From: Psammoneis japonica
Lineage: Eukaryota
Assembly (NCBI GenBank): GCA_008632985.1
Contig: QPGO01000007.1
Coordinates: 806,001-870,000, forward strand
Direction: 5' to 3'
DNA: 64,000 nucleotides
Shown: piece by piece, positions 1 through 64,000 of the stretch
Position numbering within the stretch: the stretch's first letter is position 1
How the letters are laid out: the number at the start of each line of letters is the position of its first letter
Position numbers and translations under genes: made by a program
The notes under the pieces: generated by a model
The model's input: only the letters and a program-made list of their open reading frames with translations
Told to the model about the DNA's origin: nothing
Databases searched by the model: none

Positions 1-3000
1 CCATCCTTGATTGGCTCTGGCACACTCAGCCAACTTGGCCGGGTTGGATTCCTTCAAGTCTGCAAGGTGTTCCCAAGTCAAGGTTCCATCCTTCCAACAA
101 ACACAAAGGTGCCATCCTTTGGTCATCTTGCACATGATTTGGTGTCCTCTGCTGTCCTGCAGGAAAGTGCCATCCTTCTGGACTGCATGCCCATCAGTCT
201 TGTGATCAACAATGGTGTCCAGAAGCAAGTGCTGGTTGCTTTTGTTGTCACATTGTGCCAACATGTTCTCGGCCATGACGTTGGCCACAAACTCCACTTT
301 CTGACCATCAGGAAATCAATCTCATGCACACAAGTGTCCAGAATGAAATTGGCACTGGCTCTGCCCATTGGTGTTCCATCTCAATCAAGCTTGCACTGTT
401 TGACTGTCCCAGTTTGTTGGGTGTCCCTGTGAGGCAACAATGCTTCTGAGTTTGCACAAACATCAAAAGCAGCATCAGGGATGTTGTCCTTGTTGGGTGC
501 ACTCACGGGAGCATCCTGGTCTTCATCATCCTTGCATGGATCAAAAGTGGGGGTCACAGCATCAGGGTCATCAATGTCTCCAACCATCATGCCCAGACCT
601 GGCTTGGCCTCCATCAGCTCATCAAATTTCTTGTGCAATGCCAAGTGCATCTCGGGTGCTGTTCCTCAGGGTTCAAGGGTCAACAGGATGAATGGTGGAC
701 AACTTGTCCATTGTCTTTTAGCATCTTGGCCATCACAGTGGGACCTGTGTCTCAACTTGGACCAAGGCAACACCCTGGGACTTCCTTGTCCTTGGGGAAT
801 GAGACGGCTGTGTCCCCAAACATGACCCAGTCATGCCAGCCAAACTTGCACATGTGCGAAATGTCAGCTGTCTGTCCAGACACTGTGGTTTGTGGAACCT
901 CCCCATCTAACTTGCAAATGTTGTGGACAGCATTGGATCAGATGAGAGCTTCAAGCTCAAGACAATCGTCCCAAAGGCATTTTGGGGCTTGAGTCTTCAC
1001 CAATTTGCATCCGACACCTTGCTTGAATTCATGAATGGTGCCTGCAGCAAAGTTGGACCATGGAGCACAGGGTTCAGTCTGCTTGACATGGCAGTCAGCC
1101 TCCCTGGCCTTCTTGCTGAACTGACCCAGTGTCTGCTCTTTTCCCCCATCCATGATCATTGTGTGGGGTGTGCCGTCTTGCATGAAGAGCAAGAACAGTG
1201 CTTCATGCGCCAATCCTTTAGATCTCAGAGGACAAGCCCATGCCCAACTGTTGGACATGCCAAAGACTTGTGCACAGGCATTGTCCCTTCTTGATTAAGT
1301 CAATGAGATTAAGGTGTTGGAGTGCATCTCCTTTGCAATGCACCTGTGTTGCAACTGTCAGTCATTGGTCCAAAATCTCTGTGACAGCATTGGATGAAGA
1401 GCCGTTTGTGCGCCACACTGCATCATGACTTTGACAGTGTTCTCAGCATCCTTGACACTGACAGACCAATTCTTGGCCAATTGTTCTGCATCAATGTGCA
1501 GTCCCCACTTCGTCATCTTGAGCAAAGAGAGACCAATGGAGGCTTGCAGCATGTGGTCATCGCATGTGTGTGAAATGTCTTGAAGCGGCTGATTCCCCAG
1601 GTGGTCTGAGGTCTCTTGAGCTGTGGTGCATGAGAGCTTTGTGCTCATGATGTGAATCTGAGGACATGCATTGTCCCCGGTCTCAGGCACATGACCAAGA
1701 GAGTCCGTCATGGAATCCTCTCTGGTTTGAAAGTTGGCAGTTTGTGGGTCCCATTCCGGGGACTCGCAAGAAAGTTCTGCTGCTGTGCCATCTTGCATGG
1801 CTGCTTCATGCTCCACAACAGCAGGTTTGGAAGTGGGAAAGCAACTCATGATGCCATTTAATTCCAACGGAATCAGGAGCTTGTCCCCATTTGCATCTGT
1901 CAATGTCGCCGCATGTGACTTGCTGTCAGGCTTTGTCAGTGGGAAATCGGTTGTGGGTTAACTCCCACGTCATTCAGCCATAACTGCACAGGACACAAAA
2001 GGTTGTGTTCAAGGTGCGGGGTGCTGTGTGCTGCCTGGTGAACAACCAGGATGCATTGGTGGCCCAAGGCAGGGTCTGCACATGCAACGGCTCTGCTTGT
2101 GGCATGCAGACTCTTGCTGGTGCCCTTTTTTGGGTCACAACCTGTGGCATCTGCTGGACAATCATGGTCAATTAAAGCATGCTTGCTCAGTGTGCTTGTG
2201 TGTGCATGACTGTCTGGCTCAGTCCAAGCTTCTGTGCACACGGCATCCCTCATGGTTGTTTGGGTCATGTGCAGGGTTTGAAGTGGACTGAGACACAGGG
2301 TTGGAGAGGATCATTCCTTCTCCTTCCCACTGGGTTTGAGGTTGCCATTCTTGTCATGCCGGTCATTGGCCTTGATGGCAGGCTGCTTCATGATTTCTTT
2401 GGACTTGCCAGTGGCATCATCCTGCTGGTCCTCAACATGAGCAGTCATTGCTGTGACCGCACTGGCAAGGGCCTTACGTGTCTTGGCTGCCACGAGTGTC
2501 ACGTGGGGACTTGAGCTTCTTTTGCACTTTTGGGGACATTCACTTGCACTCCTTGTTGGGGCAGCACTTGTCCTTGATGTCTTTCTCATGAATGACATCA
2601 TTGCATTGGCGCTCAGTGGCCTTCAAGGCAGCAATGCAAAGCTTCTTGTTTTTGTTGTCTGGCTTGGACTGCTTGATGAAGTCTTTGCATGAGACAACAC
2701 ACCCATCAAAGTTGCCGAGCAGCTTCATGCTGGCCACAATCTGTGCTTTGATGGAGTCAAGGGATGTGTCCTTGATGCTCTCCAGAAGGTGGTGCACCTT
2801 GGAGCATTCATCAATTCTGGCACAGCCGCACTCCTCTTGAGGCCCTCAATGATGGAATGCAGTTCAATGCAAACACGCACCAGGTGCTCAAAGTTCCAGT
2901 TTTGGCATTTGCCGTGGTGGGAAAGACCTGCCAAGCGCTTTTCAGCTGCATCAGCCATGTTGTCTGTGTCATTCAGACCCAAGAAGTGGTTGTGCAAGTT

Positions 3001-3730
3001 CAGACAGGCCGTCCTGCTGTCCTGATTGTGCTGAGCCTTCTTCACATGTGCCCAACAAGAATGTTCCCATGTGATTCCAGCAACAATCTCCCAAACCTTG
3101 ACATTGTCAGCAGCAGATGTTTCTGCAGGTTGCAGGCCAGCCCCAGTGGTGAATTGGGGGGCACAGGCAATCATCTTGGCACAGGCATTGGTGTGGTTGT
3201 CAGCGTCATTGTCTGCCTCCAGTGCAACCACCTGATTTTCTCAGACCACACAGGCTGGGGGGATGTTGGTCTCTCCGTGACTGGCACAAAGATGCTTGTG
3301 GATGGCTTCCATCACATTTGGCCAGTCCTTCTCAATGACAGCAGGCAGGGTGTCAGGGTTCTCATGGGTTGTCGTTTCCACTGTGCAAAGGTGGTGGCAC
3401 CCCCTGACATGGTTGAGGGTGACATCAGCAGCGTGCAACATGTGTGAAATGCACTCATGGTGATGAGCAGCAAAAGCTGCGAGCTTGAGATTCGTCTCAG
3501 CCCGCAGCAACATGGTGGTCCCAGGTTGGGTTGTGGATTCGCTCCACCACCCACCGCACCTCCTGGGCAATGCATGACCTTGCATGAGGTCTTGACCTCA
3601 TGGTTGTTAAGATGATGCAGTTCCTTGACAGTGTTGATTCCCTGGTCAGCAAAACAAGGGCCGCTGACACTTGGTTCATGAAGCCAAGTCTGCGGTGTGA
3701 AAAGTGAGTGAGTTGCACGAAGTTCATGTT
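1..3730 (-). mobile_element. Degenerate Ty1/Copia (CoDi-like) LTR retrotransposon, gag-protease-integrase region, continuing beyond the window start
   Basis: Frameshifted minus-strand fragments. Gag: 'DQGINTVKEL..VKTSCKVMHCPGG', 'RAETNLKLAAF'. Protease: 'EPDSHAHT' (ELDSHADT-like). Integrase core: 'MIMDGGKEQTLGQF..KQTEPCAPWSNFA..LWDDCLELEA'. Copia domain order PR-IN. Almost no TpA or CpG left. Confidence 0.85.
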
Positions 3731-5419
3731 GCTTTTTCATTGTCATGTGTGTTCCATTAGTTTGTCTGACCAAAGTGTCTAGAGATTGGATTCCAATGTT
3801 GCAACTGCATGTTGCCATGTGTGAACATTGTGCAGACTGGAGTGCCAACTCTTGTTGGACATGCGTGGTCACACACTGAGGCATGCTTTGTTCCCAATGG
3901 TTGGCTTGACCTGTGGCAAGTGTTTGACACAATGTGCAGATCACATCATGTGGACACATGCACAATGGACATGTGTGTTGCTCACTCAACAATTTCAAAT
4001 TGCTCACGCATCTGCCTCTGAGACAACTTTGGCATGGAAATGGCATCCCAAATCCATCAATTTGCACTCTGTGTTTGTGCATGCATGCCACAAAGCACAT
4101 CAGAACAGATGATGCTGCAGTGCTCAATGAGCATTGAGACTCGCACCAATTCTGGGAGCACAACACTTGTCAAGCACAAATGCTTCTTGCATTCGTAGAT
4201 GTTTGCTCATCATCCCTGACACATGTGGAACATTTTGTCATCATTGCATTGCATCACAATTACCCTGTGGTCGCATGAACTGGGGATGAGACTAAAAGAA
4301 AGCTTGCAACATTGTGCTGCTTTTCTAGAAGTGAGATCTAAACTTGAGGAACCGTTCTGTGCCCAATCGCCAATGACAAAGCACACCAAACTAACTTGAA
4401 TTGATCACATGGTAAATTCTTCAGCGGCAGTGCGGCAGCATCCCGCACGAGCATCTGGCCTTGGGGCCACAAGTCCACACAAGTGTCAGTGATGGGCCAT
4501 GATGCCATTCAAGACATGGCCAAACATTTGAGGCCACCACAACCCAGGGCTGCTGGTGGTGGTGGTGGTGCTTCTTGTTGTTGTTGCTGCTGCTGTTCCA
4601 AAACATGTTGCATCAATCATCCCCACCCACTTGACTGGTCATTTGGTGCGTGTGTCAGAGGGTGTCTTGCCACCATGTGGTGGCTGCCACACTGCAGCAC
4701 AAGTGTCCTCCTCATTGTCACAACTGTTGCTGTTGACTGAACAATGCTCCTTTGTCAACACCAAATCAAAGCTGACTTTGAACTCAATGATCAACCCCCA
4801 TGTGACATTTTTGTCCATGCACCTGGCTCCAAATGCCTGGATGTAATCAACCTGCGTGGTGGCCAGACCCAATCCTTGACTGCACACTCCATTCTTCTGC
4901 TCTGTTCTTGTCTTCCAATTGAAACACAATCCAAACCTCAATCAGCTCCATGGCATTTTTGCTTGTTTGTGCCCCCCCACATTGGACAAGCAAAGGAGAG
5001 AGGACAATGACACCTTCATCAACTTCCAGGTCATCATCACCATCATTTTCCTGGCCAGCCTGCCCTTGCTGCTGCCTGTCTGTGTTGAGGGTGCACCGGG
5101 CATTGAACACTTGACATGGGCACACATTGCACGTTGGAGCATGGCAATGGCCACGGTGGCCAGAGACTGACAACTGCAGGCACTGCTGCCTCCACCCAGC
5201 TTGGCCACAGTGAATGACATGTCCCCAAGAATGCACCACAGCTGTTGATCAGCAGCGGGAAATTGATTTTGGCACATTCCTGCCACAACTCAGCTGGAAA
5301 TGTCTGCTCCTTGCAAGCCCTGCATGCCAAGGATTGTGGCCATGAAATGGCCCAAATCGAGGGTGTGAGTTCAAAGCAGCAGCTCTGTGGCTGCTTGGCA
5401 AAAAGAAGAAAGTTTTAGT

Positions 5420-5770
5420 CAAGCTGTCTCATCAGCACCCATGGAAATGAAGCCAAGGAGTTTGGCAAAGAAGGGCACAGGAGACAATGCAGGGCACCAA
5501 GGAAGAGCAAGGGATGGTTGCCAAAAGCCAACAAGTTCTTCGAGGAGCTGGTCATGGAGATCAAATGTGACATCACAAGTGAATGACTTGGTTGATGGGA
5601 AGATTTGTGCAGAACAATTTCAGCCAGACATGGAAAGCAAGTGGGGGAAGGATTTGATGATTTGGGTGATGAGGGCAGGGAGAATGATTTGGGTGATGAG
5701 GACAGGGAGACCACATGGCGGCCGAGCTGTGCCAAGGTCTGCGAGCTGGAGCTGATGGTGGTTTGGCAGA
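5420..5770 (+). repeat. Relic 3' end of an unidentified multicopy ORF family, copy 1 (homologous to ~42640-42980)
   Basis: 'ggttgccaaaagccaacaagttcttcgaggagctggtcatggagatcaa' matches 'ggttgccaaaggccaacaagttctttgctgacatggtcatggagatcaa' at ~42760. Both copies end in CAK(I/V)(Y/C)ELEL. Confidence 0.7.
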
Positions 5771-6878
5771 CAAAAGCCCATGAGTGGAATTTTTTTGTTG
5801 TTCAATGCATGGATTCTTCCATTGTAGAAGCTGCACTTTAGATGGCTGCTGTCAAATTGAACATTTTGTGTGGGTGCAAACTTCTTGAATTTCACCGCGC
5901 TGATTGGTTGTTGCACGTCTGTCCCACAGACATTCATTGGAGGTGCGGGACATTTTTTTCTGTTTTCAAATCACACCCATCAATCACACCAAACAAGTGT
6001 GATTCACATCAAATCTGATTGATTTAGTCACAAACAAATTGACGTGCTTGCACTCACACATTTGGGGCAGACCAAGGTCTGGTCATCTGTGGACACAAGG
6101 ATTCATTGATTCAGGCCCCTGGTGGTGCACAGCTGTGAGTGGAGCAGTCCAGCTCCACACAGCAGTGCCATGCCAGAGTAACTGCACAAAAAAGGCAGTC
6201 ATGCAAGAAGTGCTCAAGTTTGGCCACTGAATGACTTGTGGGGGATGAACAGCAGCACACTTTGGGGCCCCAAAACACTCTTCTGGAGTGGCTGTGGGGG
6301 GTCACACCAATTTGCAATGGCAGGCTGAGGAAAAGGCAAACACATGCAGGGCAAGGGGAAAAAGGTAGCCAACTGACAAGGCCAGGGCATGGCAAAGTGA
6401 TGCCAAGAATGCAGAGCAGGCTTTGAAAAGAGTTTGTCTGGCAGTGCAGCATGAGAATGCGAGATGTGTGTGACAGCATGACAAAATGCCTGTCGTTGGT
6501 CAGGACCCAATGGAGAATGGGCTTCATTGCCCAAAAAGATGATGGAAAAGGATAAATACAGTCGACGTTCCCGTGCCACGAGGCAGGAATCATTTGAGAC
6601 TCCGACATTTCCGCCCATAAACTTGCCAAGATCAACGCCACCCAATCACAAAAATTTCACACTCACATGGAAGCCGCAGAAGCTGCATTTGGTGTGCATG
6701 GCACCAAGCCCAAATTGACTCTCTTTGACCACTTTCATGGTGATGACAAACAGCGATTTGATCGTGAAGTACTGCGTCTCCCATTTTGCAAATATAAAAT
6801 GTTCTAAAGTACAGACATGATGTAAATCGAGTGTCCTGCGGCTCAGGGCCTTGTTCCCCTTTCATTGCTCTACCCCCG

Positions 6879-8558: not shown

Positions 8559-10699
8559 GATGATACCCTCCTGTCCGACACCTAAATCCAAAGAGCGAGG
8601 ATATTATGGGGCACACAACAATAAGCAGGGCCGCAAGTCACGTTCCTCTTTTATTGTCGCTGCGTTATCCGCACTGCCGGTAAGGTTTGACTTCGGGCAG
8701 AACAAACAATAAAAACAAGCGCCAGAAGCCAGTTTCCTAGCGTTTTACTGGTAAAATATTTATGTAAAAATTCGTACAATTACAAAAAAGAGATGAGGTC
8801 GGATCGAAAAAAAATGCGACAGAGACACACAAAAACGCGACACAACACGACAAGCGACAATGGCGACCATCATGTGGGGATGATTTCAACACCCGCACTA
8901 ATGTCAGGCATACACACCTAACAATGTAAACATGACAGATTTAACTGAAACAATGTTTGGTGCACTGCTGTCTGTCTGGGTGCTCCAATCGATCACTCGA
9001 GATGACGCCAATGTCATCAACATCTCGCGTTCATGTTGTTGCTGAGTGCAGTTCATGCAGAAAATTGCAGAAAAAGCCAGTGACAAAGATGCCCTGAATT
9101 TAACCACAACCTGCATCCAGGATCAATGAGGGTGCACACATGTGCTCATCACTCACTGCACGACACATCTGGTGCAGCATTTCATCACACGAAAATCAAC
9201 CAACGGCATCACGGGCGGCCGCACACCATTGGCCAGCATCGAGTGCCACACAAAAAGCATGGGGATGATGGATGTCAACTCTCCTGTCACGTTTGTCTGT
9301 CTGTTGCCCGTTTGTCTTGTAGAATCTGTGACAATGTTCCCACACTTTGTGGTCTGCTGGTGTCCACATGCTTCATCATCTGACACAAGAGCTGTTTGCT
9401 CCTCTGATGAAAAGGTGCTGTCAAAGGGAGTGCAGCACCAGATGCAAAAGCTCAGGAACTTGCCAGCTGATGCTGACAAACCCATGCATGAACCCATTGT
9501 TCTGCACTTTTCTGCTGGCATGTGTGAAAAATGCCTGTTGTTCCCAGGCACCAGCGTGCAGACTGCATCATCACAAGGCAAAACCAGCCAGAGATGAGAC
9601 TGAAGGGCACACGCACAGCTCAAACAAATGCATTGTTTGGTGCACTCATCACAAAAGCCTTGGGAAGCACCTTCCTGTGCAGGGTTCAGGGCAGCACTGC
9701 CACAAAAGTGCCATCTGTGGTGTTTTGTGTGCAAGCGCCCATGAAGACTTCCATGCAACTGCTGTTTGACAATTTGCACAGTGACTGGGCAGCACACAAT
9801 CTGCAAATCTGCAATCCAAAAACAAGCTCAAATCACTTCTTCACCAAGTCTTCACATTGGAGCATCATCAGGAGCACCAGGAGAAGTGGCAAGCAAGAAA
9901 TCAAAACTTGTGGGAGGACAAAGTCAACGACAATCATGGAAAAAAGGAAATTTCAGCAGTGCTGCACATGGACAGGCATCACTGTTGTCATGTTAAATTG
10001 GAGCAACTTGGACATTGTGGCAGTGTCATGGACAGTGCTGGAAAAGGTGCCACACCCAAGGATCTGATGGCAAGAAGATGTGGCTCATTTTGCACTCCAT
10101 CAAGGGATGTGCCAGCAGCCAGCTTGCCAACCTGCAGTCAAGAGCTGGGTGATCGCAGAATGCATCAGATTGTCTTTTGTACAAAGGAAGCTGTGCAAAT
10201 GCTCTCAGCAATTTTTGTGGCTGGGCACCTTGTCAACAAGACATGTGGGGTGCAGCAAACAAATGGCATGTTTCTCTGCCACGCAACATTTTTTTGGAAT
10301 GATTGGTTGACCACAGGGTCAAGATGGAGCCAAGGCCAAGGGTGCAAGAACACAAAGCAGATTGACAAATGACCTCAATCCAAGAGCACTTCACATGGAT
10401 TTTTGGTGACACAGAGCACAGCTGAGCTGTCTTCACTTTGCGCCTGGATCTGGCAGTGTGACATGATCAATTGGGCACTGTGCCAAGCAAATGTTTTCAG
10501 ACAGTTCATGCCCAAAACAGCAGCTGGCCCTTCTGCAATTCAGAGAGCTGGGTTCAAAATCATGCCAGCTCTCCAGTGCCAGGGAGAAAAAATGTTTCTT
10601 GAGAACTCTCTGCCAGCTGTGGAGGACAGAGTCACAACTGGATGATGGGGTCTTGTTCTTGGCAAACACTTTTCAACACAGAGCTGAAGAGAGTGCAAA

Positions 10700-37890: not shown

Positions 37891-37892
37891 CC

Positions 37893-42606: not shown

Positions 42607-42619
42607 CCACAGCTCTGAC

Positions 42620-51679: not shown

Positions 51680-53656
51680 TTAGACCGGAAGTCCACCCCG
51701 ACGAGGGCCAAGAACGTTGTCAGCCTCCGCCATTTCGCCAAGGCCCAAAATGTTTTGGCACTTGAGGTCGGCAAAGCACTGTTCAAGTCGCGCGACGGTG
51801 TTCGCCTCGCCAGCCCGCAAGCACTCACGCGGCTATGTCGAACAAACAAGACGAGTACAAAAGCACATTACGAGTGAGAATGCTGTACAGACAGAACAGC
51901 ACGAGGCCGATTGCAGCAGGTTCAACTTACATCGTAATACTTCTTGTTGGGCTTGTCCTCTGATGTTTCACAGGCAAAGAGAAGCACAGCGTTTTAGTGA
52001 CGTAGCATTCTCAGACAGACAGTTCATGCCGTCAATACTCACCTCCTTCTGGGTTTCCGATTTGCTTTTGCAAGTAGTCGTGGTATTTGGACTCGAAGTT
52101 CTTGATGCCCTCCCAATAGCTCCATTGAGTGTCCGTGTCAATGTTCATCTTGATGACACCGTATCCAATGGCTTCCTGGATATCGCTGACATCTGAACCA
52201 CTACCACCATGGAACACAAACGCTACAGGCTTTTTATCCGCTGGTGCTTCGTCTCCGATCTTTTCGCTGATGTATTCCTGGGCCCGGGTCAGAATTTTTG
52301 GCTCGAGTTTGACATTTCCCGGGCTGTATACACCGTGGACGTTTCCAAACGCAGCGGCAACTGTGTACATTGGAGAAATCGGTTGAAGGGCCTTGTACAC
52401 CTCATAAATTTCCTCTGGCTTCGAATAAAGATCCTCAAGAGGGGTGTCAGTGTTGTCGACGCCGTCCTCTTCACCGCCGGTGATGCCAAGTTCCATCTCC
52501 AAAAGCAGACCGATTTTCGACATGCGTGCAAGATAATCCTTACAGATTTCAATATTCTCTTCGATTGGTTCTTCCGACAAGTCAATCATGTGGGACGAGA
52601 AAAGGGGCTCACCGTGATCCTTGTAATAACGCTCAGATGCCGCAATGAGTCCATCCACCCACGGCAGAAGCTTCTTTGCACAATGATCAGTGTGAAGAAT
52701 TACAGGAACACCGTACTGCTCTGCCATCGTTCGTACATGGAAAGCGCCCGAGACTGCTCCGGCAATGGCTGCTCTGTAATCTTTGTTGTCGAGGCCTTTA
52801 CCACCATAGAACTGCCACAACACAAACCAACAATTCAGCCAGAGTAATCACGACGACACAGTGGCTTTCCGTCATTCAAAAACTTACCTGGGAACCACCT
52901 GAAGAAAACTGAATAATAATTGGGGCATCGTTCTTACGAGCCGCCTCCAAACAAGCATTAATTCCGGAGGAGGAGACACAGTTGACAGCTGGAATGGCAT
53001 ATCCTAACGAAACAGGCGCGAAGAGGAAATCGGGTGAGATTTTTTCTTCTTGCCAGATTGTGACGAAAAAAGCCTCATGACATTTTCATACAAAACTCGA
53101 TAGTGTCGAAAATTTTAGCCAGAGTACGTCAAACACCACGTCACTAAATTTGCGAGGTCGATCATAGCGATCGAAAAAAGCCTTCTCGACCATGAGATTT
53201 TCAGAGCAACGCGAAGGAATGAAGAAAAGGCAACGCTTCATAATTCCTAAACCTTTCATGTCTAGGACTCCTATGAAGCTGAACTCATTTTCTTCGCTAT
53301 GTCGGCTCAAACATGATGAAGCATCACGCTTTTCAATGCAGCATCGCGGAGGCACCTTGAAAAGCAACTGTACACGAAATTGATCCCTCTTCCGAGATAA
53401 ATTCTTATGACTTACCATTCTCCTTTGCATGTTTCAATAAATCAAGTTGAGCCTGTCCAGTCAAAACACCTGGGTGCACACTCGCCGGCATGTTGGGGTA
53501 TCCGTCAAGAGCACATTCGTCGGTACAGGGAAGGCCCAATTCTTCGGACATGGCGTCGAAGAGCGCAGTACTTTTGCCGGCATATCCTGCAGGTGATACA
53601 AAGCCACCAACAGAAGACACCAAAGAGAGCGCCGAAAGCGCAAGAGCTAACTTCAT
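51680..53656 (-). CDS. FBA: Plastid-targeted class II fructose-1,6-bisphosphate aldolase; exons 53656-53416, 53003-52888, 52811-52043, 51959-51931, 51832-51680
   Basis: Bipartite presequence (MKLALALSALSLVSSVGG-F). Motifs 'YAIPAVN', 'ILHTDHC', 'FGNVHGVY', 'VFHGGSGS', 'KMNIDTD', 'PNKKYYD|PR'. Four GT-AG introns keep the frame. Confidence 0.95.
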
Positions 53657-54749
53657 GATGTCCGTCGTTTTTTTTTGAATCCGATTTGGTGAAGAGATGT
53701 GAAGAAGAGAAGGGCTTCACACCGCACCGCCGATTGAAGTACGTACTGTACGTAGAATTCTACGATGGTCCTCCTACGTATCCGACGAGGCGATGCTTCG
53801 TGCGTGTCAAGCTTGCTTCTGTCGCGTGCACTGGAGGAGTCGCGCAGCCCGAGACGGAAACATGATGCCATATGGTAGCAAAGATACATGCTACCACTTG
53901 AAGAGTTCCTAGCAGGTCCCTACCCTTGATCTTTGTTCTGTCTCAGGTTCACTATTCACGACATTACAAGGATTGTGGCTCTACAAGAGAAACTGAAATT
54001 CGCTCATGAATGTCAGTGGATCTTGCCGTAAAAACGAAAGAAGATCTCTTGCATCTGCGAACTGTTTTGCGTTGGTTGAGTGATGCCGAAGTTGCTGCGA
54101 ACGAGCTCGTAATGTTCAAATTGACATTCTCTCATTTTCTTGTCAATCTCGCCCAAGTGCCCTTTCAGATTTCAAAAGATATATAGGAAAACCAAAGCGC
54201 TATACTGTGTTGTGCAAATGAAAGAATGACATGAATAAAGATGGATATGGTCGGCTGGTAAAGATCGCACCCAGTACTCATGAAGTTGATACACATGATG
54301 TGGACATGAGACTATGGATAGTAGTGCGTTGATTGAGGATAGGGTATGGATCTGGTTCGACATGGCTGATGGGTGTCGGGTCGATCGACGGACCATGGTA
54401 TCTTTCTAAGAGGTATTGATTATTCATGTACGAATAAATACCAATGTCGGAAACAAATTTTCAAACTTCAGTAGGCGTACGTACGTCACTACCAGAAAAA
54501 ACTCCCTCCGACACTGGCCTGAAATTGCACAACCCAACACCACGTCTCTTTTCACGGTGCGTACAACGTCAGTGCATATTCGTATTGTGACGTTTGCAAT
54601 CTTCGCCTCATATCCTGTTACGTAGCACTAAAACCGCCATCACAAGAGACGGAGGCGCTGTGAGAAGCAAGGCGAAAGGGAGGCAAGCTTTCTTACTTTT
54701 TCTCGGCACTTGTGAGACAGTAGCAACAGCAACAACATCATCCACCAAG

Positions 54750-56629
54750 ATGCAGTCTCAGAATCCCGGACACGGCCCCGAACTTCGCGGTTCCAACATT
54801 ACCCTCGGAACGATCACCAAGCCCACCGAGGAAGACAATCGTCAAACGAAAATTGTCTGTACATTGGGCCCCGCCTGTTGGGATGTGGATCAGTTGGAGG
54901 AGCTTATCGATGCCGGAATGAGCGTTGCTCGTTTCAACTTCTCGCACGGCGATCACGACGGACACAAGGCATGTCTAGACCGTTTGAGGGAGGCTGCTAA
55001 GAACAAGAATAAGCATGTCGGTACGTTTTTTGCCGACAAATAGTGGTCTTTGTCTCGTCACGTCAGCTTTCGGTGTGCGCGCGTAGCATAGTACTATGAT
55101 TCTACCCGAGCGAATCTTTTTCTTCGAGAAAAGCTATCTTGTTCCACAACTGCTTATGATGCTCACTATTCTCACTCAACCTCTATTTTCTTCGCATTAC
55201 CATAGCTGTCTTGTTGGATACGAAGGGACCAGAAATCAGGTCTGGTTTCTTTGCAGACGGCGCTAAGAAAATTGATCTCGTCAAGGGCGAGACAATTGTG
55301 TTGACTTCTGACTACACCTTTCGGGGGAACAACAAAAAGCTCGCCTGCTCCTATGCTTCTCTAGCTACATCTGTAGCTCCTGGGCAGAGCATTTTGGTTG
55401 CTGATGGCTCGTTGGTATTGTTGGTGGTCTCGACTGATGTTGATAATGGCGAGGTGACATGCCGCATTGAGAACAACGCGTCGATCGGCGAGCGGAAGAA
55501 CATGAATCTCCCCGGTGTCGTTGTGGACCTTCCCACGCTTACCGAAAAGGATATTCGGGATATTCAGGAGTGGGGTATCAAGAATGAAGCCGATTTCGTT
55601 GCTGCAAGTAAGTTTTATTTTGCGTCGTATTAGTTACTGAGAGCTATCATGGGTATCTCACAGCCCAAATTGTTTTTCACCAAAATTTTAGGTTTTGTTC
55701 GCAAGGCGTCCGATATTAAGACGATCCGTGAGGTTCTTGGCGAAGAAGGCAAACACATTCAGATAATTGCAAAAATCGAGAACCTTGAAGGTTTGGAAAA
55801 CTATAACGCGATCTTGGCCGCGACCGACGGAATCATGGTTGCCCGTGGTGATTTGGGTAGGTTATTCAACAAGTGCTTCGAGAGCATCTGCCAAGTCATA
55901 ACTACGTTTCAACTGATCTTGTACTGTTTGTCCTACTTCTCGTTTAGGTATGGAAATCCCTCCCGAGAAGGTCTTTCTGGCCCAGAAAATGATGATTCGT
56001 GAGGCCAACATCGCTGGTCCGCGACGCAAATGCTCGAGTCCATGATCTCCAACCCCCGTCCGACTCGTGCCGAGTGTTCCGATGTCGCCAACGCTGTGCT
56101 GGATGGAACCGACTGTGTCATGCTTTCCGGAGAGACCGCAAACGGAGAACACCCCACCGCCGCCGTTCAGATCATGGCCTCTACTTGTTGTGAAGCAGAG
56201 TCTGCCGTCAACTTTAATTCTCTCTACCAAGCTGTCCGTAACTCAACCCTCAACAAGTATGGACACTTGAGCACGTCAGAGAGTATCGCCTCGTCTGCTG
56301 TGAAGACCGCCATTGATGTCAATGCCAAGGCGATTATTGTTTGCAGTGAATCGGGCAAAACCGCCACCCAGATTGCCAAGTTCCGCCCCGGACGTCCTGT
56401 CATGGTTTTGACCACGTCCCCGACCGCAGCACGGCAGTGCTATGGATGCCTCAAGGGAGTACAGAGTGCGATTTTGCCCTCTCTGGAGCACACCGACAAG
56501 GTCGTCAACAAAACCATCGAGGGATGGCTCAAGAGTGGAGTTGCCAAAGCTGGTGACCCCGTTGTCGTTGTCCACGGAACAACCGCCCGTGTTGGCGGAA
56601 CTAACGTCATGCGTATTCAATATGCCTAA
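54750..56629 (+). CDS. PK: Pyruvate kinase (no targeting peptide, likely cytosolic); exons 54750-55020, 55206-55607, 55692-55856, 55948-56629; apparent ~13-nt deletion at 56018/56019
   Basis: '[10 protein letters not shown]', 'ARFNFSHG', 'LDTKGPEIR', 'IIAKIEN', '[13 protein letters not shown]', '[15 protein letters not shown]'. The frame breaks within the GKPVxT motif. Confidence 0.93.
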
Positions 56630-57628
56630 GATGTTTGAGTAACAAAGCACTATATCTTTCAAAAGCTAGTCGATCATTTGCCAAGTCTAGACAAAAACTT
56701 GAAATGTTATGTCTCAGATCTCCGGATGGACGGAGCGGGAAGTTTTCCGTATAGTTACAGTACCTTTATTCTTACGAATAAATAGCTCCACTCGACTCTG
56801 ACACTCGTTGTCAAAACTCAATGAATCTCGTACATTGAAACAAACTTTCAGGGTACAGCGTGCAGATCCAAGGCTTTTCCATCGCGAGTAGGATGACAAC
56901 TGTATAGTAGGATAATGACGTACGGGCGGTTGCCACCGCTTTGCTCATGCGTGCTTCGTATCGGGGATGGACGAGCGCGCTCCTGGAGTGAAACGGTGGG
57001 TTCAAACCACTGGTCGCGCGCTCTCTTCTAAAGTGATGTAAATCTCATGGAATGCATTGTGTGCTTGGAGTGGAGATGGCTTTACTAGCGCTGTGAAAGG
57101 TTTTCTCCCTACCCAAAGCTGGACGGTGGGGCCAGAGGGCGGGAGAGGTGGGAGCGATTAAACTGTGCTGACGACCGTGGCTTGTCTTTGTCGATCTTGA
57201 AAGAATGAGACAGACCGGTGACCGAAGAAAAACAACAACCAACCCTTACAGCACGTTCAACGTGCGTACGTGGTTCAACAGGTAATGGGTCTTCTCCCCG
57301 ATTCTGGCACTGGATGAGGACAGCGGTTGCCACCGCTTTGCTCATGCGTGCTTCGCATCGGGGATGGACGAGCGCGCTCCTGGAGTGAAACGGTGGGTTC
57401 AAACCACTGGTCGCGCGCTCTCTTCTAAAGTGATGTAAATCTCATGGAATGCATTGTGTGCTTGGAGTGGAGATGGCTTTGCCAGCGCTGTGAAAGGTTT
57501 TCTCCCTGCCCAAAGCTGGACGGCAGGGCTTCCAGCGCCACCCACTGATGTGCAGGCGGTGCAGCAGCTGGCCAAACATGTCTTGGGATTGGGCGGGTGG
57601 GCCCGTCTGGAGGGCTGGTGGAGCACTG

Positions 57629-58708
57629 TCATGGGGCGATGGGCACTTCAGCATTCGGGTGAAGCACAAAATTGCCCCCAGCGAGCATGGCTTGCGCAAA
57701 TCCGCGCATGGTGGGCTCGGCTTGGAGGTGCAGATGGCGCAGCATCTCGTCAGAGCGCCAACGGCCTAAGAGACGGATTGGGTCGGTGTCGACATGGGCA
57801 CACAGCAGTGCCGTTGTTCCTGCTGCACGAAGGCAGCGGGATGAGACATCGGCCGGTGTGAAGCCCAGGTTCTCGGGACCCAGGGCAACAATGGCGGTGC
57901 GGAGTGCCGACGTCATGTCGGCAGGGGAGACGGCGTGCCACCTGTCGTTTTCAAAATGCACCCCCAGGGGGGTGTCGGGTTGCGCTCCGCAGGTGCGCAA
58001 GTGGACAACTCGGCGGACGAGGGCCCTGGTTGGGCAAAGGTCTGGGTGGCCTGACAGGCCGTGCGCAATGACTTCACCGCGCACTCCATTTTTCTGGGCA
58101 GCAAAAGTGAGGGAGCTGAGGGTGGTGGCGAAGAGGGCAGGGGCTGCAGTGGTGAAGAGGTTCAGATGCACTCCGCCCGAGGCCAAACGAAGGTCTGCCA
58201 GGCAAAACGGAGTGGTGTCAGATGGTGTGGCTGTGCACTCACCCGGGCAAAGCAAAAAGAAAAAGGCGATTGCGATCATGTCCGCAATGGCCCGGGTGCC
58301 GGCGCTGTTGCCAAGGGCGGCGGCGTGCAAGATCCAGAGGAGGATGCTGATGGGGACTGGTTTGACACGATCGGGCGGCGGATCCTGTTTCTTGTAAAAA
58401 TGGATTTGGCAGGTGAGACGGAAATCCAAGCCGCCCTGGGGTGTGAGATGTGGGTCCGCGGACCCCATTGCAGCGAACATCTGCCCAACCGACCGCAAGG
58501 CATCCTCAGCGGTGCGTGCCCGGACGGGATTGCCTCTTGGTGCGATGATGCCGGTGCGGAATCGATGGAGGAACACTTGGAGGAAGAGGATGGGATTGCA
58601 GGTGTCTTCGAGAAATGGACTGATGGCCAGTTGGCGGCAAAAGTCGATCCAAAGGTGCCAGTGGGTGTCGGCGGCGGAGGCTCGGGAAGTGGCAATGCCA
58701 CGCTGCAC
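57629..58708 (-). CDS. Tyrosine recombinase of the DIRS/Ngaro element, catalytically mutated
   Basis: 'IAFFFLLCPGEC' (expected LLRPGEY), 'CLRAAGTTAL', 'LGRWRSDEMLRHLH' (expected catalytic Tyr is His). Confidence 0.85.
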   Translation of the reverse strand: MQRGIATSRASAADTHWHLWIDFCRQLAISPFLEDTCNPILFLQVFLHRFRTGIIAPRGNPVRARTAEDALRSVGQMFAAMGSADPHLTPQGGLDFRLTCQIHFYKKQDPPPDRVKPVPISILLWILHAAALGNSAGTRAIADMIAIAFFFLLCPGECTATPSDTTPFCLADLRLASGGVHLNLFTTAAPALFATTLSSLTFAAQKNGVRGEVIAHGLSGHPDLCPTRALVRRVVHLRTCGAQPDTPLGVHFENDRWHAVSPADMTSALRTAIVALGPENLGFTPADVSSRCLRAAGTTALLCAHVDTDPIRLLGRWRSDEMLRHLHLQAEPTMRGFAQAMLAGGNFVLHPNAEVPIAP

Positions 58709-59784
58709 TGCTTCCTGCGCAGCGCCGAGATCACGTAAGAACGCATTTCAGGTGGCGGGGTCCACAGACGCCAAGACTTGCTCTGTGGGCAAGTGGAGTT
58801 CAAATGTGAAAGGAACGCGACGTCAGACAAGTGTTGCAAGCGCGAAGCGTCGTCACCCGCTCGGTTCCAAGTGCCCGGGTGGCAATCGTGGAGGCCCATG
58901 TAACGGTGTTGGCGTTGATGGTGCGCTTGAAGCCGGAGGAGCTTTGAAGCCGGTTTGACTGTGGCAGCCAATCCCTTGCATTGCCAGCACATGGTGCCAA
59001 GGTTGTCGGCACGGTTGAGGTTGGTGCGCTCGCGGATGTCGCACGTGTCGGCAGCTGCGCAGGTGTGGACGATGCTGCCGACCAGTTCGAGGTCGGTGTT
59101 GGTGATGGGTCCGTGTGGATTCTCGTGCGTGGCAAGCAAGTCGGAGATGTCCTTGGGAAATCGCAGGCGCCACGCAATGGGGCCTGCGTCACGTTGGATG
59201 CGACGTCGGCCAGAGGAATGGCGCAGCTTGGCGGCTCGTGGGACTGCGGTGGGTGTTGGTGCGATCACCCCGCCGGCCCCGTGGCCGGCAGCGTCGTGAC
59301 AGCCATGAACAGTTGGAGGCAGTGGTGCGAGCTCTTGGATGCGGACGGGACATGAGTCCAGAGTCTGGCGCAGATCACGGAAATCGTCCAGTGTGGAATG
59401 TACGTTGGCCACAAGTCGGATGCGTGAGTCCGGTGCAGTGTGGCGGAGGGCTTCCTGCAATTCGGAGAACAGGCCTCGAGAGCCGGGTGTGGCTGCCGCG
59501 AGTGAACGCAGTTCTCCCAGGAGTTTCTGACAATCCTGAACGGCAACGCGTTTGCGTGAGCGGGGGAAATCCTTGTGGAGTGTGTCGTGTGGTCGTGCAC
59601 GCCGGCGAGGAGCAAGTCGAAGTGTCATTGACAAGGTGTCAATTAACCAGCCTAACACTTCTTTCTGTGTAGACCATGTGGCGTCACCCTTGCGGAGCTT
59701 TTTGACTGATGCGGGTTCTTTGCGGGCGGCAACGTCGTTGGAGTCCGTGGGGCGGAAAACATCGTCGATGGCGTGCAGCAACAC
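58276..59784 (-). CDS. RT C-terminus/RNase H frame of the DIRS/Ngaro element, overlapping the YR frame
   Basis: 'KEVLGWLIDT', 'CHDAAGHGAGG', 'ITNTDLELVG', 'ADN', 'NRAGDDASRL'. Confidence 0.75.
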   Translation of the reverse strand: MLLHAIDDVFRPTDSNDVAARKEPASVKKLRKGDATWSTQKEVLGWLIDTLSMTLRLAPRRRARPHDTLHKDFPRSRKRVAVQDCQKLLGELRSLAAATPGSRGLFSELQEALRHTAPDSRIRLVANVHSTLDDFRDLRQTLDSCPVRIQELAPLPPTVHGCHDAAGHGAGGVIAPTPTAVPRAAKLRHSSGRRRIQRDAGPIAWRLRFPKDISDLLATHENPHGPITNTDLELVGSIVHTCAAADTCDIRERTNLNRADNLGTMCWQCKGLAATVKPASKLLRLQAHHQRQHRYMGLHDCHPGTWNRAGDDASRLQHLSDVAFLSHLNSTCPQSKSWRLWTPPPEMRSYVISALRRKQCSVALPLPEPPPPTPTGTFGSTFAANWPSVHFSKTPAIPSSSSKCSSIDSAPASSHQEAIPSGHAPLRMPCGRLGRCSLQWGPRTHISHPRAAWISVSPAKSIFTRNRIRRPIVSNQSPSASSSGSCTPPPLATAPAPGPLRT

Positions 59785-59879
59785 GCGATGTGTGTTTCTC
59801 CGGGCTGCGGCGGACCCCTGCGCGGCGCCGATGAAGTCATCGACGTATGTGTCAATGCAAGCGAGGCGCCGGCGGCGGC

Positions 59880-62800
59880 TTGGGTGTTGAGGTGTGGGTC
59901 CGGCGACGTTGGAATCGGCGCGGCAATTGTTGCCGGTGGTGGAGTTGGCTGGGGTGCATGGGTTGGCACCCGACTGGATGCCAATTGCTCCAATGGGTGT
60001 GGTGGTGCCGTTGCGGCACGCACTGGCTGTAAGTCAGCCAGGTCTGCTGCCGTCTTGGCAGCGGCGCTGAAACACGGTGGCGAACAGGCCCATCCCACAG
60101 GGAGCCGTGTGGGTGTGGCCACCAATGGGGGTTCTCCCGGCAGGTGTGGGAAAACCACCCCGAGTCGTTGGGCGTCATCGGGGTTAAGGTGCATCCGATA
60201 GAAGCCGTCAGCGAGGTCGACTTTCACAAGGTAAACCCGGCCGTGCGATGGATTTGCCAGCAAGATGCGGCGCAGCAAACGGTCCAAGGTGCGTCCGAAC
60301 TGCATGGCCTCCATTGGGGTGTTGGGCTGAGTCGCGTCGTTGGTGCCGTAGAAAGTGCAGTCAACGATCGGTCGTGGTCGCCGACCGCACTGGGGCACCA
60401 CGCCGATGGGGCTCAGATGCAATCCTGGGGTGTCCTTTATTTCCTCATGTGGGAGGACCACCCAGAAACCCTTGTCAATGTAGTCGGCCATGTCCTCCCG
60501 CAGGAACTCGACATGCTCGTAAGCGGACTTGTGTGGCCCCCTGGCCAAACTTGCTTCAAGCTCTTGAGGTGTCCAAGGTGCGTCTGCGAGGGTTGTGGGG
60601 ACACCGCGGCATTTGCAGCTTTGCAGCAGCCTGTGGGCTGGGTGCTTTCGTGTGCGGCGCAATGGACCCCAGTCCCCTCTGCCGCTGCGGCGACGCAACA
60701 AGCAGCCCAGTCCTCCAAGGCGCAGCAATTTTGTGTCACGTAACATTTGCTTGCCCAGTTTGTCAGTCTGTACAGCGTTTGCAATGGCCTGCGTGCGCGA
60801 AGCACTACGGTCATTGCTGTCTGAGAATCTCTCCACCTGCGGGGGTGGCGGCACTGCCAATGATGCTGATGGCAGCTGAAAAGGCTCTCGGCCCAGAGCC
60901 CCCGAACTCGGGCCGTTGCCGAAGACCTGTTCAGTCTTCCAATGCTCCGTTGCCCACGTGAGGAGGTTCGCCTGGTCGCTCTCCGCGTGGTTGTCACGAT
61001 GGTCTGTGACACAACCACAGTTGGAGTTGCGCTGCCCTTTCAAGTGATGCAGGAGGCACCGTGGGTTTCCTTGCGTGTCGACCGGCAGGGCGACCCCATT
61101 CTGAGTGCACCGCCGCTTTACCTCCCGTGACCCAACGTTGGGACGATCACGGACGGCATTGAACCGTTCGTCGCATTGGGGGTTGCGTGCTGGCGTGTTG
61201 TCGCCCGGCGCGCCTGGGCGAGGGTTTTGTGAGGCACCACCCACGGGCTGGGTCAACGTGGGAGTCGTGGCAGCTGGGGGGGGCGTGCTGCCGGACACCA
61301 GTGCAATTGCAGGGGGCAGCGTGTAACGCCACGAGTCGTTCCCCTTCGAAGCATCGCCCACTGCTCGGCGCGCATGGAAAGGGACGGCGGCGTTGCAGGC
61401 TGTCTCCTGCAGCCAGAACCACGACATGAGCTCCACCTGCACATGCCGCTGCATGTTCGCCACCAGCGTTGGGTTCCGGGAGCACTCCACAGCTGAGTCC
61501 TCAGCGCACGTGTCCAGGTCCTCCCGGGAATCCGTGAAATGCTGGACCACAGGGTGTCCCGCTCCCAGCAATGTTGCGAGTGCGACGCGGGTGCCTTCCA
61601 AACAATGTTGGAGAGATTCGATGGTGGTGGTTGCGCGAGCGTCGTCCGGAGTTTCCAGCACCATGGTGTCGGTGAGGCTGGGCCGGCTGTCACCTCCGTG
61701 GATTTGGCGGCACATGGCAGCGCGGTGTGTGATCTGCTGCGCTTGCTCCGGGGTCGTGAGACCAAATTGACACGGGTTGACTCCTTGGGCGGGGTCATCC
61801 CTGTTGTCTCCTGCAAAGTTGAGGCTCATCAATTTCGACACCAAACTCACAGTGACAGGGATGCGGAAACGCACTCCCAAAGCGCGGCGCGTCTCATCGA
61901 CTGCGTTCTGGACTTCGGTGATGCGTCCCGCCTTGGAAGCCCGCGCGAGGCGTGGCCACACAGGCGGCAGCTGATCTTCAGTGCATGCTTGGCAGAGCCT
62001 CATGAGCTTGTACACACCTGGATCTCCGAATGCTTGCACCGGCATCTTTCCTTGCTCGGCGGCTCGTTGGCGTGCCTGTGCGTCCATGCAAGATTGATGC
62101 TGCTCGGTCGTGAGTCCATCGATCGCCCTCACCACTGGTGCGATGTGATGGGGCGGAAGTGCAAGCTCGTTCCGCCCTGGCAGGTCAAGATTGACCTTCT
62201 GGTCGAAGTGCCGCATGAGCACTGCATTCGGGGGCTGGGGCATGGTGAGCCACTCTCGCGCAATGGCCGACATGTGGGGGTCCGCCGCCGTGGCGGTGCA
62301 TGCAACCTTGAGACAGTCCAACAAGGGACGTGTCGCGTCGACCTCATTCCTGGCCGCAGCCGCTCCAAAAATCTGTGTGAAGGCTTGCTTCGGGGACAGC
62401 CCCCCTGGGAGAAGTACGTTCATGCAGGCGAACGGGACGTGCATCGCAAGTCGAGTGCGTGCTTCCACCGTGTTTGCTGCGTTCGGGTCCGCGGGGTCTG
62501 CCAACCCTTCAGGGTGCGCCGTGATCTCTGTTGCCATCCCCGCATCATCTGGGACAAATGTGCCAGCGGCGGCAAGACCCATCTCCTCTGGCGGATGCGG
62601 GACCACTGTGAACTGGTTGGCGACCAGGTCCCCGGCCAGGGCGCAGGCATTTCCGTCCCACGGCTGTGCAGGCCCAATGACGGCAGTCGGGCAGGTTGAA
62701 ACGCGGTGGTGCACCTGAATCGACCCTTCATCGGGTGCGCCCTGCGCACAGCAGAGGCGCACTGACGCCATCGGCACGTTGTGCTCGGACGCCGCCGACA

Positions 62801-63243
62801 CCCTCTGTGCCAGGGCCTGAGGGTTGTAACGAGAGGCCCCCTGCACACGGGCGGCAAAGTCAATCATGGGCTCCGTGTAGACTCCTTGGTGGGGGTCCTT
62901 GGTGTTCGTCGCGAAGAAATCGTGGCAAGTTCGGAGGTTCCCCTGTTGGGGAACCTGAGCTGCACCGGCCTGCTGTGCCGGTTGGGCAGCTGCCTGTGGC
63001 TGCACGCCCGGCCCTCCTTGCGGCGCTTGGCCAGCAGGCACACCCGGTGGTGGCTGGGCTGGTTGCCCTGCTTGTGGCACGGGATGCACCGGCAGTGGCG
63101 GTGCGCCCGGTGGTGGTTGCGGTGGCTGCCCAGGCGGTTGCCCGTCACCGTGATTCACGGCGTTTGGCGGTTGGTCACTCACACTGCGTGCCGTGTCGAA
63201 TTCTTTCTGCGATGGAACAAAGACGGCGGAGGTGTCCTGCATC
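59880..63243 (-). CDS. Gag-like ORF fused in frame to the RT N-terminus of the DIRS/Ngaro element
   Basis: ATG at 63243 (MQDTSAVF). Pro/Gln-rich N-terminus. Cys/His knuckle 'RCLLHHLKGQRNSNCGCVTDH'. Followed by RT motifs. Confidence 0.7.
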
Positions 63244-63425
63244 GCGGTCTTGTGGCGATTAAACCATGCTGACGACCGTGGCTTGTCTTTGTCGATCTTG
63301 AAAGAATGAGACAGACCGGTGACCGAAGAAAAACAACAACCAACCCTTGCAGCACGTTCAACGTGCGCACGTGGTTCAATGGGCAATGGGTCTTCTCCCT
63401 GATTCTGGCACTGGATGAGGACAGC

Positions 63426-64000
63426 AATTGACACTGACGTTGCCAGCTTCTGCCAAAGAAACTGACGTTCACGATTGCAAAGTTCCACTTTCTCCTTGAC
63501 AGTGTGAAAAATGAGGTTTGGGTTGTTGCAAGCTTGCTCCAACACGAGTGCCCAAATGCCATCAGGCACCTCTTGATCGCGCACCACTCACAAAATGTTT
63601 CGGCAAAGTTTGATTTCCGCCCTCAGGTCCTCATCCATGCCTTCCCACAAAGCACAATGTTCAGCAGTCCAATTCTGCTTCATGCCTTTTACCAGCACAG
63701 CCTTGCCAACGTCACCAAAAGAGTTTTGCTCAAAATCCACCTCTTCGAGCTTGTTGCTTCGCACAAACATCTCGCCCAATGCTTTCGCACCTTCATCTCC
63801 AATGTCGTTCCCACCAAGGAAATTTTTTTTAATGGATGTGTCATTTTCAAGCTTTCGTGCCAACGATTTGGCTCCCTCATCTTCAATGGAGCAGAGCAAC
63901 AAATGTGCAGTTTTGATGGAGGAACTCTTCTGTGGAAAGTCTCCGATGCACTCTGCACCCTCGCCCCCGATTGGATTTTGGGAGAAGCCAACAGACTCCA
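63426..64000 (-). pseudogene. Leucine-rich-repeat (RI/NLRC3-like) gene disrupted by the DIRS element; 3' tail lies at ~56811-56925
   Basis: 'IEDEGAKSLARKLEND..LGGNDIGDEGAKALGEM..LEEVDFEQNSFGDVG'. In-frame TGA at 63588. Reading frame continues across the reconstructed empty site. Confidence 0.75.

Follow-up and report, generated by a model that had tools for sequence, protein, structure and literature searches.

The window analysed here is the whole 64,000-nucleotide (64-kb) stretch of Psammoneis japonica contig QPGO01000007.1 (assembly GCA_008632985.1, positions 806,001 to 870,000 of the forward strand), in which gene islands alternate with blocks of DNA that hold almost no TpA dinucleotides. 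A preliminary description, made from the sequence alone, had proposed that the repeats of this region underwent a targeted mutation of TpA to TpG or CpA. With a threshold of at most 4 TA per 400 bp, TpA-poor blocks are found at 1-6750, 8951-15500, 20751-26450, 28201-29950, 32251-37900, 42501-46150, 47551-48650 and 57251-64000; they sum to ~37.9 kb, that is, ~59% of the window. The blocks listed in the preliminary description agree with the recomputed ones to ~300 bp, although it omitted 47551-48650, and its "about two dozen" TpA in the first 6 kb are 24 when counted. Four mobile elements are central to what follows. Gypsy-1 is a long terminal repeat (LTR) retrotransposon on the plus strand at 28906..34169, with LTRs at 28906-29324 and 33746-34169 (92.5% identical) and the Pfam domains RVP, RVT_1, RNase H and integrase. 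Gypsy-2 is a degraded pol remnant on the minus strand at ~11183-14698. Element-2, a young LTR retrotransposon on the plus strand at 37893..42606 (LTR pair 97.3% identical, with a gap of 515 N at 39919-40433), serves as an internal control. The fourth element, on the minus strand at 57154..63434, is GC-rich, is bounded by terminal repeats of 180 bp (57154-57333 and 63255-63434) and is assigned below to the tyrosine-recombinase (DIRS-like) retroelements on the basis of a structural model.

The observed/expected ratios (O/E) over the whole window are 0.30 for TA, 0.67 for CG, 1.51 for TG and 1.48 for CA. The corresponding values for the oldest blocks (28,042 bp) are 0.06, 0.25, 1.82 and 1.78; 109 TA are present there, while base composition predicts roughly 1,800. 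Among the 16 dinucleotides the depletion in these blocks is limited to TA and CG (AA 1.20, AT 0.91, TT 1.15). The gene islands have the ordinary TpA content attributed to them earlier (TA 0.51, CG 1.03). The TG excess is approximately equal to the CA excess in every sequence class compared, which argues that integrated double-stranded DNA was attacked, on either strand. The edges of the blocks are sharp to 100-200 bp, and the blocks stop a few hundred bases or less from housekeeping genes whose TA O/E is ~0.5. The proposal that mutation is limited to mobile-element DNA is supported, with a mobile origin assumed for ~20 kb of the old blocks.

The direction of change can be read from protein conservation. 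The Gypsy-1 open reading frame (ORF) at 31079-33703 contains NCCRD, HPDF, EECGP and RHPWP at the sites where the family consensus has NYYRD, YPDF, EEYGP and RYPWP, so all four motif examples quoted in the preliminary description are correct. The pol ORF was aligned with 60 homologs (54-62% identity), and the columns of conserved Tyr were scored. In the TpA-poor part there are 21 such columns, occupied by 12 Cys, 5 His, 1 Ala and 3 Tyr; in the TpA-normal part there are nine, with 7 Tyr, 1 Trp, 1 Met and neither Cys nor His (0/9). The other frequent replacements in Gypsy-1 pol are Ile>Val (13), Thr>Ala (8), Val>Ala (5), Ile>Thr (4) and Leu>Pro (3), exactly the products expected of TA>TG/CA within or across codons. 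For Gypsy-2, our own Gypsy profile, built from the 60 homologs and run with hmmsearch over frames in which stops were masked as X, gives a match at 13125-14456 (E 2.7e-71); 0/19 consensus Tyr are kept there, with 6 Cys, 4 His and 9 other residues. The direction TA>TG/CA proposed earlier is therefore supported by Tyr>Cys/His in 17/21 columns of the TpA-poor part of Gypsy-1, and Gypsy-2 and the recombinase described below agree with it. As judged from related sequences, a Gypsy family that is natively poor in TpA is excluded: the TA O/E of related Gypsy loci from metagenomes is 0.60-1.18 in 79/79 cases, though these loci were picked by patterns that include a Tyr and are uninformative on the prevalence of TpA-poor copies.

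The element at 57154-63434 has a TA O/E of 0.14, a CG O/E of 0.88 and a GC content of 61%. Its recombinase ORF (57632-58747, 372 aa) has 830 homologs. The family has no Pfam match in 10/10 homologs scanned and no sequence match in PDB; a predicted model of the family (pLDDT 85.6) resembles Cre recombinase (Foldseek E 3e-6, probability 1.00, TM 0.50-0.68). By this modelled Cre-like fold we assign the element to the tyrosine-recombinase, DIRS-like group. Its reverse transcriptase gives a weak RVT_1 match (E 0.054) and has a YVDD-type motif. Of five conserved Tyr in the recombinase, one is kept, one is Cys, two are His and one is Phe. One of these Tyr, near the C-terminus and shared by 98% of 60 recombinase homologs, is replaced by His in the window, as had been noticed before; we take this residue to be the catalytic Tyr. 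A metagenome protein (P0136) that is 67% identical to the product of 57632-58747 contains only 0.5% Tyr, and at two conserved Tyr positions its residue is the opposite of the window's, with His against Cys at one and Cys against His at the other. The same process may have hit this independent recombinase copy elsewhere.

The timing of the mutations follows from the LTR pairs. The two Gypsy-1 LTRs differ by 19 events, namely 7 TG<->CA doublets, 4 TA<->TG/CA differences, 5 CG<->TG/CA differences, 1 other transition and 2 transversions; transitions or transition doublets thus account for 17/19. The LTRs hold 3 and 5 TA per ~415 bp, compared with 25-27 per 367-bp LTR of Element-2. TG in one LTR against CA in the other is the outcome expected when a single ancestral TA is hit separately on each strand, and since LTRs are identical at insertion and now differ by such doublets, the hits came after integration. 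The earlier statement that chromosomal DNA is affected on both strands, rather than the RNA of one element, is supported by these doublets together with the near-equal excess of TG and CA. The terminal repeats of the DIRS-like element are 93.9% identical and differ by 2 TG<->CA doublets and 3 TA<->TG/CA differences. CpG decay was considered as the source of the 7 Gypsy-1 doublets and rejected: with ~8% of CpG changed per LTR, ~0.1 double-hit sites are expected by our estimate. We infer that a Gypsy-1 LTR had ~20 ancestral TA sites, ~80% of which were lost post-integration, that other sites changed by ~0.5% per copy, and that TpA changed at a rate roughly two orders of magnitude above that of other bases and ~20-fold over that of CpG.

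Element-2 is almost unmutated (TA O/E 0.49); it gives weak matches to the Gypsy profile, and at 3 of the 10 sites where its LTRs differ, the LTR at 37893 has CA and the other has TA. In the public sequencing run X1 (compared with the window below) the family depth is 9,000-41,000 for Element-2 and 11,000-19,000 for Gypsy-1, with a single-copy depth of ~60. Since Element-2 is a high-copy element and almost unmutated, high copy number alone was no trigger for that copy. The trigger implied by the expression "repeat-targeted" is thus not demonstrated, as the high-copy Element-2 is spared and the old block 34195-37895 is now single-copy.

Nor is methylation required for the TpA step, contrary to the coupling suggested before. 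The mutated parts of Gypsy-1 have a TA O/E of 0.24 with CG at 0.92, so one Gypsy copy is TpA-depleted with CpG near normal; the DIRS-like element (0.14 and 0.88) is of the same type, Element-2 shows neither signature, and the old blocks have lost both dinucleotides. This nested series indicates that TpA loss is separable from CpG decay and faster. Deamination of 5-methylcytosine (5mC) is rejected as the cause: it cannot remove TpA, which in two elements was lost with CpG O/E at 0.88-0.92.

The sequence context of the hits was determined in three ways. A comparison of 188 surviving TA with 729 TA in unmutated DNA shows enrichment of the survivors in TTAA (4.3x), CTAG (2.8x) and CTAA/TTAG (2.5x) and depletion in ATAT (0.07x) and ATAC/GTAT (0.15x; chi-square p 1e-23). 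At T|A codon junctions of Gypsy-1, taken at conserved A-initial codons, 13/13 sites are mutated before a pyrimidine and 4/11 before a purine (Fisher p 0.001). Conserved Tyr codons after a purine became Cys in 5 cases and His in 6, with none kept, while after a pyrimidine 8 became Cys, 1 became His and 4 stayed Tyr; these counts refer to the Gypsy-1 and recombinase rows, the 19 rows of Gypsy-2 being excluded. A preference for the A of 5'-TAY-3' (Y, pyrimidine), which is the T of 5'-RTA-3' (R, purine) on the other strand, accounts for all three results. The preliminary description named two kinds of mutator. An adenine deaminase stays a reasonable candidate; error-prone repair of the Pol-eta type, with A>G at WA (W, A or T), does not, as AA shows no deficit (its O/E is 1.20 in the old blocks, 1.08 in the mutated parts of Gypsy).

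Gypsy-1 has a core at ~29943-31858 (1.9 kb) with 9-20 TA per 200 bp, compared with 0-4 outside it, while CG stays near normal throughout the element (7-19 per 200 bp). The core edges are sharp to 100-200 bp, and one ORF spans the TpA-normal and TpA-poor parts. The GC content is 0.458 in the unmutated core and 0.531 in the mutated parts, a rise explained by each lost TA turning one A:T pair into G:C. The core may have been left by a targeted chromatin state that spread inward from the old flanking blocks, or it may have been restored by gene conversion from an intact copy.

The reads were compared with the assembly over 29330-39900, with run X1 represented by exact-word contigs; a further run, X2, covers only 5/30 bins. 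The X1 contigs (332-1055 bp, depth ~57-67) cover 34195-37895 and reproduce the TpA-poor block over ~3.5 kb with 16 differences among the 40 of 161 rows listed. The differences listed include 3 TG<->CA doublets, 5 sites with CG in the reads and CA/TG in the window, 1 TA>TG and 4 others, and no mass restoration of TpA is seen among them. If the reads carried TA at the TG/CA sites of the window, hundreds of differences would be expected. In this one run, then, the check proposed in the preliminary description leaves TG/CA in place and does not restore TA. The 16 differences are fixed in X1, with no second allele seen, and the majority are CG<->CA/TG or TG<->CA doublets. They suggest that X1 stems from a different haplotype or strain, or that a few assembly errors fell on just these dinucleotides; the TG<->CA doublets between X1 and the window suggest hits made after the two diverged.

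The remaining TpA-poor DNA is mostly without assignment. The Pfam scan included 48 stop-to-stop ORFs of at least 120 aa from the whole window and 125/148 ORFs of 75-119 aa, the 23 left out being those in 28.8-29.4 kb and 57-64 kb. None of the ORFs scanned in the old blocks matches a Pfam family at E<=0.001, and there is one weak RVT_1 match (E 0.0014); a relaxed scan of 10 long ORFs gave a sole match, to RVT_1, at E 0.054. Conversion of TA to TG or CA creates no stop codon and destroys TAA and TAG, so that in the mutated DNA long ORFs of spurious appearance are numerous on either strand, with TGA as their only stop. Such ORFs could inflate gene predictions in genomes of this kind, and annotation is affected in another way, as hypermutated elements lose Tyr and most stop codons and escape Pfam.

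The block at 1..6750 is old TpA/CpG-poor DNA, presumably debris of mobile elements (30 TA, 89 CG, 811 TG and 763 CA in 6750 bp); its ORFs have no Pfam family at E<=0.001, and a homolog search with the ORF 3315-4169 gave none. The block at 8951..15500, with 25 TA in 6550 bp, contains the degraded Gypsy-2 pol on the minus strand. The block at 20751..26450 holds 31 TA, 108 CG, 599 TG and 682 CA in 5700 bp, and the Pfam scan of its ORFs was without a match. A TpA/CpG-poor tandem array with a 190-bp unit (3.3 copies, Tandem Repeats Finder) lies at 28288..28905, and its units differ from each other by TG<->CA doublets. The array is split by the Gypsy-1 insertion: 28341-28380 matches 34185-34224 at 97.5%. 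Beyond Gypsy-1 follows the old TpA/CpG-poor block 34170..37892, with a plus-strand remnant that resembles a long interspersed nuclear element (LINE); this stretch lies within the larger block 32251-37900, where 28 TA remain in 5650 bp. The remnant ORF (36672-37751) has 28 representative relatives at E<=0.001, of which 7/7 scanned carry RVT_1 only, and by this homology we assign it to a LINE-like (RVT_1-type) reverse transcriptase. In run X1 the block 34170-37892 has a single-copy depth of 38-125, except for one bin at 344. The block at 42607..46150 continues the one interrupted by Element-2 (12 TA in 3650 bp at 42501-46150). A small TpA/CpG-poor block at 47551..48650, between the uS3 gene and the gene of an RNA-recognition-motif (RRM) protein, has 7 TA, 27 CG, 115 TG and 127 CA in 1100 bp, and its 270-aa ORF is without a Pfam family. 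As to the element classes claimed earlier to be affected, Gypsy on both strands, tyrosine-recombinase and RVT_1-only LINE-like elements were recovered, and Copia was not found.

The gene island at 46298..57000, used as a control, contains genes for uS3, the RRM protein, L26, a class-II aldolase and pyruvate kinase according to Pfam matches. It encloses the small block just described; per kb outside 48001-49000 its TA O/E is 0.46-0.72 and its CG O/E 0.83-1.12. The uS3 gene is uninterrupted (intron-free). The aldolase (~52850-53560, minus strand) begins with a signal peptide followed by Phe, MKLALALSALSLVSSVGG then FVSPAG; this N-terminus is reminiscent of the motif for plastid targeting in algae whose complex plastids are of the red type, e.g. 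diatoms. The uS3 and aldolase genes thus give indirect signs of an intron-poor alga with such a plastid. A cluster look-up of the aldolase yielded only bacterial clusters, the PDB matches of uS3 do not discriminate (the 678 bits of the top one come from two matched stretches), and the clusters of 6 Gypsy homologs bear no organism names. Two single-exon ORFs on the minus strand, 16451-18994 (848 aa) and 6882-8603 (574 aa), have normal dinucleotides and no Pfam family at E<=0.001, and are probably lineage-specific host genes. Tandem Repeats Finder reports no (AC)n array in the 64-kb window.

We consider it very probable that the TpA-erasing signature in the old transposon DNA is genuine and that the phenomenon is real and DNA-level. 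The best overall explanation, to which we would give a probability of about 0.55, is that integrated mobile-element DNA undergoes a region-restricted hypermutation at the DNA level by a presumed deaminase. The A:T pair of 5'-TpA-3' would be changed to G:C, giving TG, or CA for a hit on the opposite strand, until TpA has all but disappeared, with 5'-TAY-3' converted fastest. The process would act after integration, on either strand, and stop within 100-200 bp of neighbouring genes; at its targets it would exceed the rate of background substitution by about two orders of magnitude and far outpace the decay of CpG. Each site would be hit once and no CpG created, because a hit destroys the TpA. 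A candidate agent is an adenine-to-inosine deaminase active at TpA, either of the TadA/ADAT2 type or from elsewhere in the deaminase superfamily, which might be recruited to silenced or foreign chromatin. The outcome would be permanent inactivation of the element through Tyr>Cys/His, Ile>Val/Thr and the loss of catalytic residues. The adenine deaminated by TadA and ADAT2 is A34, preceded by the universal U33, and the target of E. coli TadA is UACG; such a target fits the TAY preference.

A number of observations weigh against this explanation. Change of T>C on the opposite strand gives the same spectrum, so that adenine deamination and thymine modification are not distinguished by it. A mobile-element origin is assumed for ~20 kb of the old blocks. 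The TpA-normal core of Gypsy-1 may be a mosaic made in assembly, the family having hundreds of copies, and some hits in the Gypsy-1 LTRs may predate the insertion, as the TG and CA excess seems, by our estimate, to be above the post-integration yield. The listed rows of difference between X1 and the window are 40 of 161. Finally, X1 is possibly the assembly's own sample, with its library type off record; a miscall at a modified base at the level of reads is unlikely.

The alternative nearest to the deaminase explanation retains the same DNA-level event and changes its chemistry: the thymine of TpA (5'-RTA-3') would be modified, for example by a TET/JBP-type dioxygenase to 5-hydroxymethyl- or 5-formyl-uracil, which pairs with G and gives T>C, or a TpA-specific nick and repair would be error-prone. 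5-Formyluracil does mispair with G, and the 5-hydroxymethyluracil of dinoflagellates is enriched at TpA. As TA>CA and TA>TG are complementary, and TG and CA are in similar excess, the attacked base is indistinguishable, and the TAY/RTA preference fits either chemistry; the sole experimental precedent (10.64898/2026.01.13.699255) puts forward adenine deamination, as a hypothesis. We regard the thymine or nick-repair version as rather unlikely and adenine deamination as the leading guess, at about even odds. A sequencing, base-calling or polishing artefact on modified repeat DNA would suit the N gaps inside a high-copy element, the suspicious Gypsy-1 mosaic and the possibility that the only run holding the region is the assembly's own sample. 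Yet the X1 contigs reproduce the TpA-poor block with the 16 listed differences over ~3.5 kb; errors on both strands of the palindromic TA should raise CG, which is not raised; TG or CA arise independently in paralogous copies and depend on context; and P0136 has Cys and His swapped at the same conserved Tyr positions. An artefact is therefore most improbable.

Two other readings place the change outside the chromosome or dispense with mutation. In the one, retroelement transcripts would be edited from A to I by an ADAR- or ADAT-like enzyme and reverse-transcribed into the genome, in line with the fact that the identifiable affected elements are retroelements; ADARs, moreover, favour a 5' U. 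This is largely refuted by the TG<->CA doublets between the LTRs of one insertion, which place the hits post-integration. The two strands are affected to a similar extent, such doublets recur in non-coding tandem repeats, and the pyrimidine preference at +1 is opposite to the 3'-neighbour preference of ADARs; RNA editing thus has only a very slight chance of being correct. In the other reading there is no hypermutation, and the elements have a native composition or are under selection against TpA/UpA as in RNA viruses, which commonly show suppression of UpA and CpG with an excess of UpG and CpA. The GC-rich DIRS-like element would agree with that. The related Gypsy loci, however, have a TA O/E of at least 0.60 in 79/79 cases, one ORF holds TpA-normal and TpA-poor parts, and conserved and catalytic Tyr are destroyed; we find this the least credible of the explanations.

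It is tempting to go further and propose a dedicated mutational defence, widespread in SAR protists (stramenopiles, alveolates and Rhizaria) instead of peculiar to a single chlorarachniophyte, in which a DNA adenine deaminase or an equivalent TpA modifier would be guided to silenced mobile DNA and turn TAY into TGY until the elements are dead; here it would be the dominant fate of retrotransposons and faster than CpG methylation decay. We put this forward tentatively, at somewhat less than even odds. The near-complete signature in several retroelement classes, in what is probably another algal lineage than that of the earlier report, suggests a general defence rather than a curiosity. If true, it would be a second, chemically opposite counterpart of the fungal RIP (repeat-induced point mutation) and a natural DNA A-to-G editor; a natural adenine-to-guanine mutator of DNA is relevant to genome defence, to the evolution of mutation rates and to base editing. 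The TAY preference, the action on double-stranded DNA of either strand, the priority over CpG decay and the boundaries of 100-200 bp offer handles toward the enzyme, and the young high-copy element and the spared core of Gypsy-1 could serve as live targets.

Among known systems, fungal RIP changes C to T mainly at CpA, creates TpA and lowers GC. The window is similar to it in the dense one-directional transitions in mobile or duplicated DNA, the permanent inactivation and the local shift in composition; it differs in that TpA is lost, GC goes up in one element (0.458 to 0.531) and a high-copy young element is spared. RIP as such is rejected, its direction being opposite, with TpA lost and CpA/TpG gained here. 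The decay of 5mC has TpG/CpA as its products too; the old blocks show it (CG 0.25), and CG<->TG/CA differences are seen between the LTRs as well as between the window and X1. The ADAR and APOBEC systems of animals share the clustered, deaminase-driven transitions against mobile or viral nucleic acids; their substrates, prior to integration, are RNA or single-stranded cDNA, and their action is strand-asymmetric, whereas the hits in the window are post-integration and symmetric. In the TadA/ADAT2-ADAT3 group the natural target adenine follows U, which fits TAY, and the natural enzymes act on tRNA; engineered TadA, used in adenine base editors, does deaminate DNA adenine.

To our knowledge, targeted A:T>G:C hypermutation of genomic DNA was unknown before a single preprint of 2026. 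That preprint (Mettrop et al., bioRxiv 10.64898/2026.01.13.699255) places 231/302 nuclear point mutations of Bigelowiella natans mutation-accumulation lines in two integrated viral regions; 230/231 of these are A>G or T>C, all at TpA, and the rate in the viral regions is ~6e-7 per site per generation, as opposed to 3.5e-10 elsewhere. The B. natans genome has 324 TpA-poor coding sequences enriched for reverse transcriptase and DDE endonuclease, as well as 124 TpA-poor clusters, and an ADAT2-like adenine deaminase is proposed there, as yet untested (10.64898/2026.01.13.699255). The statement in the preliminary description that nothing of this kind is described in diatoms holds insofar as our literature search gave no report for diatoms; the phenomenon itself is in the B. 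natans preprint (10.64898/2026.01.13.699255). The integrated DNA of nucleocytoplasmic large DNA viruses and virophages in B. natans resembles the window in that almost only A>G/T>C occurs, at TpA only, giving TpG/CpA; that the change is confined to foreign or mobile DNA beside normally mutating DNA; and that the TpA-poor, TpG/CpA-rich clusters contain few annotated genes, reverse transcriptases and transposases among them. The window itself has the A>G/T>C change, the TpA-only target and the restriction to mobile DNA. According to the preprint, the B. natans data are new mutations in viruses still at 3.3% and 9.2% TpA, while the window is a historical footprint near saturation (O/E 0.06); integrated viruses were measured there, and LTR, tyrosine-recombinase and RVT_1-type retroelements are the targets here. 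The main text on B. natans states no flanking-base preference and does not mention diatoms, whereas the window prefers TAY. The genomes differ as well: for B. natans, PMC13746701 gives a mean of 8 introns in each gene, a repeat content of 12.9% and a great number of (AC)n loci, and the window has an intron-free uS3 gene and long single-exon ORFs, lacks an (AC)n array and is ~59% TpA-poor. The signature in the window is thus no longer categorically new and is a much more extreme case than the first report of 2026; what it adds concerns the target motif, the timing relative to CpG decay and the action after integration.

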